Assembly: GCA_005239465.1 (NCBI GenBank) | Contig: SPAW01000002.1 | Coordinates: 40,868 to 104,867, forward strand | Source: Nitrospira sp. | GTDB lineage: Bacteria; Nitrospirota; Nitrospiria; Nitrospirales; Nitrospiraceae | Direction of reading: 5' to 3' | DNA length: 64,000 nt | Shown: in pieces, positions 26,422-38,808 of the stretch | Numbering within the stretch: the stretch's first letter is position 1 | How the letters are laid out: each line of letters begins with the position of its first letter | Program-made: the position numbers and the translations under genes | Notes under the pieces: model-generated | Seen by the model: only the letters and a program-made list of their open reading frames with translations | Told to the model about the DNA's origin: nothing | Database searches by the model: none

Positions 26422-29394
26422 ATGCTCACTCAGACTGACGAGCCAGTCATCACCGATGAAGCCCTTCGGCAGCTTCACAAGGAAGTGTCCCTTGCCGCCG
26501 AAGTGATCGCACTGAACTGGCCCATACGCACTTTTATTTCACGCAGTCCCTTGGCTGGATTTGAACATCTGCCGTTCGGGGAAGCAGTCATGCGGGCGCG
26601 GCACCTGTTGGGCGGTGAGGGCTATCTGTCACTGACGGAGTATCGTGCCTGTTGGGCGCGGGGACGGATCGTCCGAGAGGATCTTGAGCAGGCCCTGAGA
26701 GAGATGGGGCCGGAAGCCATCGTAGGTGCTTCCATTCAAGCCGGCAGCAAGCGAATTCAGGCGGAGGAGGTGCTTCTCCTGCACCTGATCCACGGATTTG
26801 ATCCGATTGACGCTGCAACGTGTTCTTGGAGGGCTCTGAATGAGCATGCTCTCGGACGGTTTCAAGAAGCTCGACCGGCAGCGACGCAGGCACGTCTCTT
26901 GGCCGATTCGGACGGGGACCCGTCGGATTCCCATCTTCTCACCGCTCTCTGGGAAGCGATCAATGCGAAGCTGCCGTTGCCCTTAGGCGACGCACCTCGC
27001 AGTTCCACCTCCTTCCGGGAAGCTGATCGACTACCCCTTCAGACCGTCGTGGAGTTGGTTGACCACTTGACCGGCTCGACACTCCTGAAGACCCTCAACG
27101 ACGAAATGATCAAATGGCTGGTCGCCTTTACCGACGAAGGTCTCGGCGACTGGGCCATGCCCAGTCGCCACTCTGGGTTTTACGGCGCATGGCGCACTCT
27201 CGCTCGACATGACACCTCCGGTTGGTTTCTCGGGATAGAGAATTTCTCGAAGAAGCTGCAGGTCTTGCCCGATCGGGCAGAGGTTGCATTGATTCAATTG
27301 CTCCAGCGCCTTGACGTTCCAGGACAGCAGCGCATTGACTACTGCTCCAGACACCTGGCCCATCTCCACGGATGGAGTGGATACATTCGCTGGAAAGGTC
27401 AGCAGCCCGACCAGCACTACTCCATCGACCTGGTTCAATACCTTGCGGTGCGGCTCTTTTACGAAGTGGAGCTGGCCTCTTCGACCTGTTTGGCTTCGCT
27501 TGATGGGCAAGCCACGTTCCCCCAACTGCACGCCTCGCTGCTCAGACGCTCTGGTGACTCAGGTGGGCCCCACACGACGCGCGAGACCGATTCCGATTGT
27601 ACGTTAGGAGATGCATGGCGGCTCTTTCTATTGGCGCAGCAGCTTGGGCTCACCCCACGGGACATCCGTACGCTTCGCGGCGGCGACGCTCGAACTCTCC
27701 TAGGATGGCTCGACTCGATGCCAACCGAAACTCATCACCCCGTATGGCAGGAGGCCTACGAGCGTCGGTACCGCCGGGACCTGCTTAGCCGATTACATCA
27801 TCCTCTCTCCGATGAGACTTCTGTTCCCTTACAGAGCCATCCCCTGGCCCAGGCCGTCTTTTGCATCGATGTTCGTTCCGAACCATTCCGGCGGCATCTC
27901 GAAGCACAGGGCACATACGACACGATCGGCTTCGCCGGGTTCTTCGGGGTCCCGCTCTGTTATCGAGGCCTCCATCACGAAGAAGATCTGTCCCTCTGTC
28001 CGGTCTTGATCAAGCCCAAAGTCTCCGTCCGCGAGACACCGCGATCCGATCGACCCGTTGCATCCGAAGCCCACCTCCGTGGGAGCTACTGGCACGAAAT
28101 CGGCGAACACTTATTCCATCGGCTGAAGGCGAACCCGCTCAGCTCCTACATGCTGATCGATGTGACGGGCGCGCTGTTTGTTTTCGCCCTGGCCGGAAAG
28201 ACCGTCCTGCTATCCTTTTATAACCGTATGATGTCTCGGCTACGGCGGTGGTTCATCCCGACAGTGCCTACGATCATTCTTACCGAGAAGCAACGCCCGG
28301 CTTCCTCCGAGCTTCAGACTCAGCACAAAGAGGCGGGATTGCCCCACGGGTTCGCAGCGGACGAACAGGCTATGGTAGTTGAAAACTCGCTCCGATTGAT
28401 GGGGCTGACAAGAAACTTTGCCCGACTGGTTCTGCTATGCGGACACGGCAGTGCAACTGCGAACAATCCCTATGCTTCCGCCTATGACTGTGGAGCCTGC
28501 GGCGGAAACCACGGCGGTCCCAATGCCCGTGTCCTGGCCCGCCTGGCGAACGGTTCGGGGACTCGTGCCGCGCTGCGGGCTCACGGAATCGCTATCCCGG
28601 ATGACACCAGGTTCTTAGCAGCCGAACACAACACGACCACCGACCGGGTGACTTTCTTTGACCTGGAAGATCTGCCTTCGTCGTATCGCGAAGAATGGCA
28701 GCAGCTCGCGCGGGATCTCGAACGGGCTGGGACTGCAACTGCGGCGGAGCGGTGTGGACGGATTCCAGGTGCTTCCCGCTTTGCGACAACCGACCTCGCC
28801 ACCGGTCATGTCGGGGTTCGCAGCCTCGATTGGGCGCAGACCAGACCGGAATGGGGTCTCTCCGGCAATGCGGCCTTTATCATCGGGCGGCGGGCTTTGA
28901 CCCGGGACGTGACCCTGGACGGGCGAGTCTTCCTTCACAGTTACGATTCGGCGGCGGACGAGTCAGGCAAAGTCTTGGAGACGATCATGACCGCGCCACT
29001 GGTCGTGGCCGTGTGGATTAATCTTCAATATTATTTCTCGGCGGTCGATAGCTGGACCTATGGGAGCGGAAGCAAGGTTCTGCACAATGTCGTAGGCGGC
29101 ATCGGTGTGATGCTGGGCCGTCACAGCGATCTGCAGACCGGCCTCCCCCTGCAAAGCGTCAAGGACGGGGCTCGACTCTATCACGAGCCCATGCGGCTGC
29201 TCGCGATCATCGAGGCGACAACCGAGCGGCTGTCCCAGATCATCAGCGGTCATCAAATCTTGCAACAGTTTTTTGATCATCGATGGGTCCACCTGGTAGC
29301 CATGAATCCTGGGACCTGGGACCTGCAGGAATATCGACCGGGCGGCCAGTGGTGCACGGTGACGGTGCGGGCTTCTCGTGAGGAAGCGCAGTGA
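26422..29394 (+). CDS. dabA: DUF2309 / DabA-family protein (carbonic-anhydrase-like subunit of DAB/Mps inorganic-carbon pumps)
   Basis: ~990 aa. Family blocks include [61 protein letters not shown] and LTRPEWGL-like [15 protein letters not shown]. ATG 26422 is preceded by AGGAGAGGA. The track N-extension covers the leader hairpins. Confidence 0.85.
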   Translation: [990 protein letters not shown]

Positions 29395-29882
29395 CGAAGA
29401 TTCCTCGACTGCTCAAGAAGACAGTCGCCTATTGGATCATCTGGTTGTTCGTGGTGGGACAAATGACCCTGTACGTCGTCCTGCTTGGCATGCTCTGCTC
29501 GTTCATTGTTGCGTGGATTGATCTCCACCGCTCCCCCCCACCTGCTCGATCCTTTCCCTGGGTCAGGCTCTTTCTGTATGTGCCCTGGCTTGTCGTGCAG
29601 GTGGTGAAAAGTGGGCTACACATGACGCGTCTGATTCTCCACCCCAAATTGCCGATCGACCCACAGATCATTCCCTACAAACCCCGGCTTCGGGATCCTG
29701 CCGGTCTTGTGCTGTTGGGGAATTCGATTACCTTAACGCCTGGCACGATCACGGTGGAGATTGCCCCCGATGAACTGCTGGTCCATGCCATCGATTCCCG
29801 TTCAGGAGAGGATATCGTGAACGGAACGATGGAATGCCGGGTTGCGCAGATCTTCGAACGCGACCTTCACGGAGGGCGATGA
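29391..29882 (+). CDS. mrpE: Mrp/Mnh antiporter subunit E-like (MbhA-like)
   Basis: NSITLTPGTITVEIAPDELLVHAID is the MnhE C-terminal signature. The GTG start overlaps the dabA stop (GTGA). Confidence 0.8.
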   Translation: MTKIPRLLKKTVAYWIIWLFVVGQMTLYVVLLGMLCSFIVAWIDLHRSPPPARSFPWVRLFLYVPWLVVQVVKSGLHMTRLILHPKLPIDPQIIPYKPRLRDPAGLVLLGNSITLTPGTITVEIAPDELLVHAIDSRSGEDIVNGTMECRVAQIFERDLHGGR

Positions 29883-38365: not shown

Positions 38366-38808
38366 AAGCGCGCGACATCATGACGACGGACGTGATCACG
38401 CTCCCGCCGGATTGTTTGATCGGCGACCTAGTCCGCAAATTAGCCGAGATGAAGCTGCAGGCGTTTCCTGTGGTGGACGCGAATGGGAACCTGCTCGGCA
38501 TCGTTAATATCTGGCGGCTGCTCCGCCACGTACTGCCGCCCTACATAGTGTCGGGCGACTTGGTTGATGTCCGGTTCGCGCCGGATCTCAACCAGCTTCA
38601 TGAGCGGCTGGCTTCCATGCGGAACCAGCCGGTGAGTGCTATCATGAATCGGAAACCGCCGACCGTGCGGCCTGACCATTCAGTCCTGGAGTGCGCTGCG
38701 CTCATGCTCAATACGCCGAAGACGGTTTATCTCCTGCCCGTTGTGGATGAGTCAGGGCGCTTCCTAGGGATCATCGCTCCCTTGGACCTGATCAAGGAGA
38801 TAGCCTAA
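38362..38808 (+). CDS. CBS-domain pair protein
   Basis: MKARDIMTTDVITLPPD...AFPVVDANGNLLGIV and SAIMNRKPPTVRPD...LLPVVDESGRFLGII form two CBS motifs. ATGA overlap with the permease gene. Confidence 0.8.
   Translation: MKARDIMTTDVITLPPDCLIGDLVRKLAEMKLQAFPVVDANGNLLGIVNIWRLLRHVLPPYIVSGDLVDVRFAPDLNQLHERLASMRNQPVSAIMNRKPPTVRPDHSVLECAALMLNTPKTVYLLPVVDESGRFLGIIAPLDLIKEIA

Follow-up and report, generated by a model that had tools for sequence, protein, structure and literature searches.

Inorganic-carbon pumps of the DAB type (DabA/MpsB) were solved structurally only in 2026, and the preprints on the DAB1 and DAB2 structures deal with two- and three-subunit machines only. In DAB1, the half-size, NuoM-like DabC lacks channel residues and takes the NuoM position next to DabB. 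In DAB2, as studied by cryo-electron microscopy, a glutamate in the membrane finger of DabA2 replaces Lys399/Asp400 of NuoL and is essential. One-way CO2 hydration gated by ions was proposed as the mechanism of both pumps. Here, a 64,000-nucleotide stretch of DNA from a metagenome-assembled genome of Nitrospira sp. (GenBank assembly GCA_005239465.1, contig SPAW01000002.1, positions 40,868 to 104,867 of the forward strand), hereafter called the window, was analysed. Between positions 26422 and 38808 it carries an operon in which dabA heads an entire Mrp-type antiporter module, together with a NuoL-like subunit (L) and a NuoM-like subunit (M). Judged from its genes and their residue patterns, we give a probability of about 0.55 that this operon represents a third, widespread architectural class of DAB-type pump and that its products would form a single complex.

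Parts of such loci have been described before. The COGNAT study (Klimchuk et al. 2017), which predates knowledge of the function of DabA, reported DUF2309 beside NuoL, NuoM and SulP. Daebeler et al. 2020, for Ca. Nitrospira alkalitolerans, and a 2025 comparison of lineage IV Nitrospirales classified a locus of Mrp genes with extra nuoL/nuoM, bicA and nhaB as a group 3 Mrp antiporter and tied it to saline/alkaline habitats; DabA was not mentioned in either. In the literature available as full text, with subscription-only papers outside reach, no description linking DabA/DUF2309 with Mrp small subunits was found. The locus had been singled out by a model working on the letters alone (the original prediction), which called it a candidate for an undescribed machine. 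This does not apply to the set of Mrp, nuoL/nuoM, bicA and nhaB genes or to DUF2309-NuoL-NuoM-SulP, which were both known, but no description was found of DabA heading the whole Mrp module, and this is the new part.

According to open reading frame (ORF) calls and Pfam domains, 12 co-directional and closely packed genes, most of them overlapping, run on the forward strand from dabA to a gene for a CBS-pair protein. The first ten of them, which would encode the core of the complex, are:

26422..29394, forward strand: dabA, 990 aa, PF10070 (E 2e-260, 867 bits), predicted β-carbonic-anhydrase-like vectorial CO2 hydratase subunit
29391..29882, forward strand: mrpE-like gene, 163 aa, GTG start that overlaps with the stop codon of dabA, PF01899 MNHE (E 8e-32)
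29879..30145, forward strand: mrpF-like gene, 88 aa, PF04066 MrpF_PhaF (E 1e-11), 65-89% identity in related loci
30146..30442, forward strand: mrpG-like gene, 98 aa, PF03334 PhaG_MnhG_YufB (E 4e-23), above the TIGR01300 cut-off
30442..30972, forward strand: fused MbhD/MbhE-like gene, 176 aa, PF13244 and PF20501, above the NF009159 cut-off
30969..31415, forward strand: mrpB/MnhB-like gene, 148 aa, PF04039 (E 4.5e-23)
31408..31773, forward strand: mrpC (NuoK-like, Oxidored_q2), 121 aa from TTG 31408, PF00420 (E 9e-19)
31770..33248, forward strand: mrpD, 492 aa, Mrp/Mbs-type antiporter-like subunit, Proton_antipo_M
33296..35467, forward strand: NuoL-like subunit (L), 723 aa, Proton_antipo_N and Proton_antipo_M, likely DabB equivalent
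35487..36989, forward strand: NuoM-like subunit (M), 500 aa, complex-I-type, Proton_antipo_M

Base-by-base inspection of the junctions between successive genes, starting with dabA and ending with the CBS gene, gave overlaps or gaps of -4, -4, 0, -1, -4, -8, -4, +47, +19, +29 and -4 nt. The value of -8 nt between mrpB and mrpC presumes that mrpC starts at TTG 31408; TTG 31372 is an alternative start, and orthologues were called with 122-131 aa, overlapping mrpB by 8 nt. The junctions given in the original prediction proved correct, and its gene identities agree with the ORFs and with the profile annotation run on each of them. The tight co-directional cluster was also rightly seen, but with dabA as its first and the CBS gene as its last member it comprises 12 genes and not 13 ORFs. 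Three antiporter-type modules had been expected, and Pfam identified three Proton_antipo_M proteins of 492, 723 and 500 aa, of which the 723-aa protein additionally contains Proton_antipo_N. The operon is a hybrid that consists of an Mbh-ordered Mrp small-subunit module with MrpD, a complex-I-type L/M pair and DabA at its head.

DabA matched the solved DabA2 of H. neapolitanus (PDB 9rd0_A) with an E-value of 4e-112, and both the FCIDVRSE block and the second metal block align. The residues of the Zn site are C481, D483, H675 and C690 (plus C693) by this alignment. The blocks FC481ID483VRSE, GH675GS...DC690GAC693GG and DW...RPEWGL813 are invariant in 14 homologues with 46-72% identity; the last of them includes an 11-residue motif (residues 803-813) ending in RPEWGL, with L813 as the final Leu. 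The Zn ligands that had been named in the original prediction are therefore borne out by the alignment with the DabA2 structure and the 14 homologues. Their codon positions were right for His (28444) and Cys (28489/28498), while those for Cys and Asp lie one base later, at 27862/27868. The only hydrophobic segment of DabA in hydropathy analysis, residues 573-599, corresponds to the membrane finger and is likewise invariant in the 14-homologue alignment. In the alignment, its D580 faces the Glu of FVESAG in DabA2 (the essential Glu444), and all 14 homologues have this Asp. Thus, DabA shares PF10070, the Zn ligands (Cys-Asp...His...Cys), the finger with an acidic residue, the buried-site Leu of RPEWGL and the DW...RPEWGL contact motif with the DAB1, DAB2 and MpsAB systems of H. 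neapolitanus, T. albus and S. aureus. No model of NCBIfam matches DabA.

Among solved structures, L matched NdhF1 (6hum_F, 1e-84), MrpA (6e-39) and DabB2 (2e-35), and it passes TIGR01974 (NDH_I_L); the protein is 100% identical to EWM72_00221. For residue mapping, L, M and MrpD of the window were aligned with E. coli NuoL, NuoM and NuoN and with DabB from the retrieved loci. L retains D178, K229, H254, H334, H338 and K342 of NuoL as well as Glu144 in transmembrane helix (TM) 5. In TM12, Ala/Leu occupy the columns of NuoL Lys399/Asp400, and this pair is also missing from every DabB sampled. L is in this respect a NuoL-like PF00361 partner of the kind found in DAB1 and DAB2. Most L orthologues have a Glu in TM12 (GPYExLW), one position before Lys399, while Ser, Ala or Arg is found there in the clade of the window.

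DabB is simplified in other respects too: it has lost Glu144, possesses only a short lateral helix, lacks a functional antiporter subunit as neighbour and is encoded right beside dabA. L does not show this simplification. It is a true NuoL by TIGR01974, it possesses Glu144, an insertion after TM11, a spacer of 163 aa between TM15 and TM16 that is helical and lengthened by repeats, and TM16 itself; it is accompanied by a full NuoM and by MrpD, and its gene lies 3.9 kb 3' of dabA. The position of Glu144 is occupied by Gln in the sampled DabB proteins of the DAB1 type and by Ile, His or Ser in those of the DAB2 type. The DAB2 structure preprint ties the loss of Glu144 to a DabB that is locked open and has no neighbouring subunit for regulation. 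Among the L variants, Glu144 is retained in exactly those that have a full M subunit alongside.

The lateral-helix region of L between TM15 and TM16 (aa ~560-690; window positions 34970-35390) contains three to four tandem 27-aa repeats of the type ARWLWxVxDVRGIDRxVxGxGxxSxxL. Hydropathy gave a spacer of 163 aa for L of the window, compared with 77 aa for E. coli NuoL; in a short variant of the operon that is described below, its length is 82-88 aa. Nineteen Mrp-linked L subunits were measured, and the spacer of 18 of them has 110-170 aa or more, with lengths that rise in increments of about 27 aa. In line with this, the lengths of L orthologues have modes at 697, 724 and 751 aa, and one protein has 776 aa. 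The extension would fit a longer arm that has to be spanned, which is suggestive only. The idea that the repeats act as a ruler matching the spanned subunits was weakened by a copy number that differs among close relatives and by the low confidence of the AlphaFold2 (AF2) model.

M was most similar to NuoM/Nad4 among solved proteins (~1e-124; E. coli NuoM 1e-100) and scored 609 bits with TIGR01972 compared to a cut-off of 264. Together with the values for L, this confirms the earlier assignment of both subunits to the complex-I type. All proton-channel residues of M are present (E144, K234, K265, H322, H348 and E407). A subunit in the M position beside L is also known from DAB1, but there it is the half-size, inert DabC instead of a full NuoM with all channel residues.

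The closest solved relatives of MrpD are MbsH (6u8y_H, 3e-65), MrpD (7qru_D, 5e-58) and MbhH (9e-52). Its channel residues are intact and form a NuoN-like set (Glu in TM5, Lys in TM7, Lys in TM8, a His, and Lys in TM12). The MbhD/E protein is the equivalent of the C-terminal domain of MrpA, as it aligns with MrpA ~605-807, MbsD, MbhD and MbhE and retains the acidic motif PDVAxTEA. All seven subunit types MrpA-G are represented in the operon. The role of the N-terminal domain of MrpA can only be filled by L with its Proton_antipo_N and Proton_antipo_M domains, though L is nearer to NuoL than to MrpA. Given that L is the only Proton_antipo_N (MrpA-N/NuoL-type) subunit of the operon, Mrp and DabA would have to share L for the Mrp set to be complete.

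The small subunits follow the order E-F-G-(D/E)-B-C-D, which is the MbhA-H order of the Mbh/Mbx/Mbs complexes of Thermococcales, as the original prediction had recognised; MbsD, MbsH and MrpD are the closest solved relatives. The operon does not belong to the Mbh/Mbx/Mbs complexes as a whole, because MbhI-N (NuoH-, B-, C-, D- and I-like) are not part of it and L, M and DabA stand in their place. It is not a complex I/NDH-1 operon either, though L and M pass the cut-offs of these families. NuoH, NuoA, NuoJ and the Q-module (NuoB, C, D and I) are encoded neither in the operon nor in 17 orthologous loci that are complete through nuoM.

Related loci were collected by a metagenome scan with a DabA alignment, which gave 80 loci, and by a scan of genome contigs with a single DabA protein, which gave two; context look-ups added more. 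The loci were scored by tblastn with the window proteins. Judgement was restricted to 46 loci that had a DabA identity of at least 43% and extended 700 nt or more downstream. MrpE directly followed dabA in 38 of them. The others comprised three loci with a short DabA-L-M-SulP arrangement, three with a DAB1-like cassette nested after dabA and two of other types. All six small-subunit genes were found in identical order in 31 Mrp-type loci, and every gene through nuoM was present in the 17 Mrp-type loci that were long enough. The order dabA-mrpEFG-mbhDE-mrpB-C-D-nuoL-nuoM is kept down to a DabA identity of 44%. Carriers with a name are metagenome-assembled genomes (MAGs) labelled Nitrospira, Nitrospiraceae, Pirellulales, Fuerstiella and Acidobacteria; numerous contigs from marine metagenomes (TARA and other) were found in addition. 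The synteny on which the original prediction had been made to depend is hence strongly conserved outside the genome and even outside the phylum. Nor is the system confined to autotrophs with the reductive tricarboxylic acid cycle, to which the original prediction had thought it useful, given its occurrence in the Pirellulales, Fuerstiella and Acidobacteria MAGs (by label).

In a midpoint-rooted neighbour-joining tree, the Mrp-linked DabA proteins form one clade apart from the types encoded as DabB-DabC-DabA (DAB1) and DabB-DabA (DAB2), with 33-42% identity to the proteins of DAB1/DAB2-type loci. The DabA of the short form nests tentatively within the Mrp-linked clade of this tree, which was built without bootstrap, and this position suggests that the short variant may have arisen through loss of the Mrp genes. 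Some loci showed further rearrangements. In L002, L038 and L039, the Mrp-type dabA is immediately followed by a second, nested cassette of the DAB1-like kind (dabB-dabC-dabA), and in L038 mrpE resumes about 10 kb further on, past the nested cassette. DabB and DabC are apparently fused to a single ORF of 858-902 aa in several DAB1-type loci (L045, L047 and L055).

Two departures from the common gene order bear on the question of which proteins belong together. The short variant (L006, L065 and L073) consists of DabA, L, M and SulP without any Mrp genes; its L and M proteins are 52-54% and 54-58% identical to those of the window, respectively, and the same core was described as 'clade C' (DUF2309-NuoL-NuoM-SulP) by COGNAT, without Mrp small subunits or MrpD. 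The reverse search from L orthologues led to SulP-(MpsC)-DabA-Mrp-L-M in three of four genomes, including the complete genome of Nitrospira sp. M1. In the fourth locus, L094 from Ca. Nitronereus thalassa (JAQOUE010000001.1), a LysR gene is followed by MrpE...NuoL-NuoM without this dabA; DAB1-like B/C membrane genes lie divergently upstream of the LysR-Mrp-L-M genes in this locus. As one variant lacks Mrp and the other one lacks dabA, L-M is the partner common to DabA and the Mrp module. This shared partner is therefore the main argument for one complex where the genes occur together.

The same variants can be read differently. DabA, L and M could be a DAB-type pump with M in the role of DabC, and MrpE, F, G, MbhD/E, B, C and D a separate Mbh-like Na+/H+ antiporter, so that two machines would share one transcript and be co-regulated for inorganic-carbon and Na+ homeostasis. 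The short DabA-L-M-SulP form without Mrp genes is in favour of this, and so is the position of DabC, which is that of NuoM beside DabB in the DAB1 structure. Moreover, the A-H module of Mbh/Mbs works with a single MrpD-like subunit and without the N-terminal domain of MrpA, and the module of the window is nearest to MbsD and MbsH. We nevertheless regard such a division as unlikely. The Mrp genes sit between dabA and L/M, overlap dabA by 4 nt and keep this order across phyla, and L094 keeps Mrp with L-M despite the absence of dabA. L retains the coupling residue Glu144, and its spacer is longer in the Mrp-linked form and not in the short form. To our knowledge, there is also no stand-alone Mrp without a NuoL-type subunit.

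A further point in favour of the single complex is that neither M nor MrpD has lost any canonical channel residue, in contrast to DabC of DAB1, which is degenerate. Several observations weigh against it. The Mrp-L-M genes persist without this dabA in Ca. Nitronereus thalassa, which shows that the membrane module can stand alone, and DabA-L-M can do without the Mrp genes, as seen in the short variant. The TM12 Glu of most L orthologues may make the finger of DabA unneeded. The repeat number of L, which varies even in close relatives, does not allow a rigid ruler for a fixed subunit count, and AF2 models the repeat region as low-confidence helices (pLDDT, the predicted local distance difference test, <50). 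For DAB2, independence of Na+ was reported, and the published work on Nitrospira treats the membrane genes as a plain Mrp antiporter.

This last view deserves separate consideration. Mrp clusters of cyanobacteria have been linked to inorganic-carbon uptake. The operon resembles the group 3 Mrp (CPA3) systems of cyanobacteria and Ca. Nitrospira alkalitolerans in its seven subunit types, with the N-terminal domain of MrpA represented by L and the C-terminal domain by MbhD/E, in its extra D/M-like subunits and in the link to bicA. It differs from them in the 990-aa carbonic-anhydrase-like DabA at its head, in the DabB-like change in TM12 of the NuoL-type subunit and in L/M subunits that are of the complex-I type and not MrpA/MrpD. 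Daebeler et al. 2020 and the 2025 Nitrospirales comparison read the locus as an ordinary group 3 Mrp Na+/H+ antiporter for pH and Na+ homeostasis that energises BicA, with the saline/alkaline habitats in support; DabA would then be an uncoupled neighbour or regulator. This is consistent with the presence of all seven Mrp subunit types and with the one genome that has the module without this dabA. It would leave unexplained why L lacks Lys399/Asp400 like DabB and why dabA and mrpE are linked in 38 of 46 loci, and the acidic membrane finger and the DabB-contact motif of DabA would be purposeless in a soluble, uncoupled enzyme. In addition, purified DabA2 was reported not to hydrate CO2 on its own. 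We consider the published reading very improbable.

A vectorial CO2 hydratase on the distal L/M-type pair of an arm with several antiporter-like subunits, as proposed here, has a parallel in the cyanobacterial NDH-1MS and NDH-1MS' (CupA/CupB with NdhF3/NdhD3 and NdhF4/NdhD4). Unlike these, the operon has no redox (ferredoxin/plastoquinone) module, no NuoH and no Q-module, and DabA is found instead of CupA. The energy must come from ion gradients. L scored 169 bits with TIGR01960 (ndhF3_CO2), far below its cut-off of 588.7, and Pfam gave no match to the Cup family among the operon genes, which separates the operon from NDH-1MS. Compared with DAB1 and DAB2, seven Mrp genes including a full MrpD separate dabA from L.

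The arrangement that we infer for the single complex, in terms of docking site, ion stoichiometry and direction of flow, would be the following. The membrane arm would be ordered L - M - MrpD - (MrpC, MbhD/E, MrpB) - (MrpE, F, G) and would correspond to a complete Mrp-type Na+/H+ antiporter plus one extra complex-I-type M subunit. DabA should dock on the distal L/M end, because L lacks Lys399/Asp400 and the DabA finger fills this very site in the DAB2 structure. It would lie on the cytoplasmic face of L, the DabB equivalent, or at the L/M interface, and its finger with D580 would insert where NuoL normally has Lys399/Asp400. The original prediction had pictured DabA as a peripheral arm; a position at the NuoH end is unlikely given the DabB signature of L and the site-filling finger of DabA. 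Ion flow along the conserved charged chain would gate DabA and lead to one-way hydration of CO2 to cytoplasmic HCO3-. The flow would probably be H+ inwards via L, M and D, coupled to Na+ outwards via the small-subunit module. The same turnover would expel the Na+ that is imported by the co-encoded SulP/BicA-like HCO3- transporter, so that the operon could serve as an integrated inorganic-carbon uptake unit in saline or alkaline, CO2-poor habitats.

The same complex might also run in the opposite direction. Na+ entering via the Mrp module along the sodium-motive force would then drive H+ out via D, M and L, remove the proton from the Zn site and thus pull CO2 hydration, with no need for an inward proton-motive force. 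By analogy, such a sodium-driven CO2 pump would mirror the NDH-1MS/CupA model of cyanobacteria. In favour of this are the frequent occurrence of the system in marine metagenomes and in Nitrospirales from marine and haloalkaline habitats, the published argument that MpsAB is Na+-coupled, and the three full antiporter-like channels with a Na+ module, which are more than a gating role requires. Characterised Mrp antiporters are Na+ exporters, though, which does not fit this direction. The co-encoded SulP/BicA would import Na+ and fits an exporter better as well, and DAB2 is activated by the proton-motive force and independent of Na+. Reversed flow is thus improbable.

In its fullest form, the proposal of a single complex would make the ten core proteins one machine of ~0.5 MDa, as estimated from the summed lengths. 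It would combine a complex-I/Mrp-like arm, three active antiporter-type channels and a Na+ module with a carbonic-anhydrase head instead of a redox module, and it would interconvert H+/Na+ gradients with vectorial CO2 hydration. For this machine, the chances appear to be slightly below even. It may be the ancestral form from which the minimal DAB1, with DabC as a decayed NuoM, and DAB2 arose by reduction.

If the proteins do form one complex, DabA would be the first catalytic head on such an arm that is neither redox nor hydrogenase. The system would be a natural choice for studying how electrostatic coupling over long distances, along antiporter-like subunits, can drive soluble chemistry, and it would be a candidate evolutionary link among complex-I-type L/M pairs, the cyanobacterial Cup systems and minimal DABs. 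The loci known as group 3 Mrp antiporters in marine and haloalkaline nitrite oxidisers would become inorganic-carbon uptake machinery, and this reinterpretation would extend to MAGs labelled Planctomycetota and Acidobacteriota. A compact module of 10-11 genes might also be of use in CO2-capture engineering.

Further features were annotated in and around the operon:

26150..26421, forward strand: leader of ~250 nt with a promoter-like TCTTGACTCC, two hairpins and a terminator-like hairpin
37019..38365, forward strand: CitMHS/ArsB/NhaB-like permease, 448 aa, PF03600 (2e-91), ArsB (3e-17), NhaB (6e-8)
38362..38808, forward strand: CBS-pair protein, 148 aa, PF00571 (E 9e-28), overlapping the permease stop, also in L004
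39391..39744, reverse strand: mpsC-like gene, 117 aa, PF10057 (E 1.4e-35)
40418..42151, forward strand: SulP/BicA-like anion transporter with STAS domain, PF00916 (E 8e-52)

The mpsC-like and sulP genes 3' of the operon are conserved companions to which the original prediction did not refer. MpsC-like genes commonly accompany DAB/Mps systems and were found beside dabA in many related loci. SulP lies directly 5' of dabA in most other lineages, with a gap of ~50 nt in L008, L091 and L093, and the same adjacency was seen in L092 and a dozen metagenome loci. Pro_CA, MpsC, P-II and SulP recurred as neighbours among the related loci, as they do (MpsC, SulP, P-II and carbonic anhydrase) around DAB1 and DAB2, and their repeated presence points to inorganic-carbon physiology. 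The permease was limited to close relatives, namely L004 and, as a remnant, L009; it is a lineage-specific accessory and probably the gene named nhaB in the Nitrospira papers. An accessory or regulatory role is predicted for the CBS-pair protein.

The terminator-like hairpin of the leader is followed by a U tract and is located at ~26320-26370, just 5' of the ribosome-binding site. The leader is conserved in four loci with DabA identities down to 63% and shows some compensatory changes, which gives weak support at this sample size (n=4). Its function may be that of an attenuator or of a new riboswitch; a comparison with Rfam gave no match at E<=1. Scans for sigma-70 and sigma-54 promoters and for terminators inside the cluster gave nothing above chance.

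A cassette with a sigma-54 activator gene and Fe-S genes is situated between selO and dabA (19658-25787). It further encodes NifU, a 144-aa ORF, Fer4, Rieske, a NuoB-like Oxidored_q6 protein (23130-23675), HesB/IscA, rhodanese, DsrE and a 198-aa protein with two [4Fe-4S] sites, and it is flanked by a duplicated N-terminal fragment of SelO at 25470-25787 on the reverse strand. The earlier statement that no NuoH, NuoD or NuoC homologue is present in the window was incomplete with regard to the NuoB-like gene, which lies outside the system. In the syntenic locus L003, MpsC and Pro_CA are found in place of the cassette. This difference and the SelO fragment make the cassette look as if it had been inserted between selO and dabA. 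The NuoB-like and ferredoxin genes (21.5-25.5 kb) were considered as a redox head of the complex and rejected, since no orthologous locus contains the cassette and the SelO fragment marks an insertion. L003 (GCA_975848865.1, labelled Petrachloros mirabilis) is syntenic with the window over RmlD, ABC-F, Ysc84, a hydrolase, SelO and the whole dabA-mrp operon, and this contig probably entered a cyanobacterial assembly as contamination from a Nitrospira-like organism.

Downstream of the operon, the region 42000-46000 has a low GC content of 0.50-0.53 compared to ~0.58 for the window. At 43375-45131 it contains a gene for a NotI-family restriction endonuclease (E 6.5e-49) and a weak HaeII-like ORF, and it is probably a restriction-modification islet. 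An NxrA/NxrB-like pair is encoded at 59634-63978 on the reverse strand by a 977-aa molybdopterin oxidoreductase gene, the ORF of which stops 22 nt short of the window end, and a gene for a 429-aa 4Fe-4S subunit, which fits a nitrite-oxidising Nitrospira.

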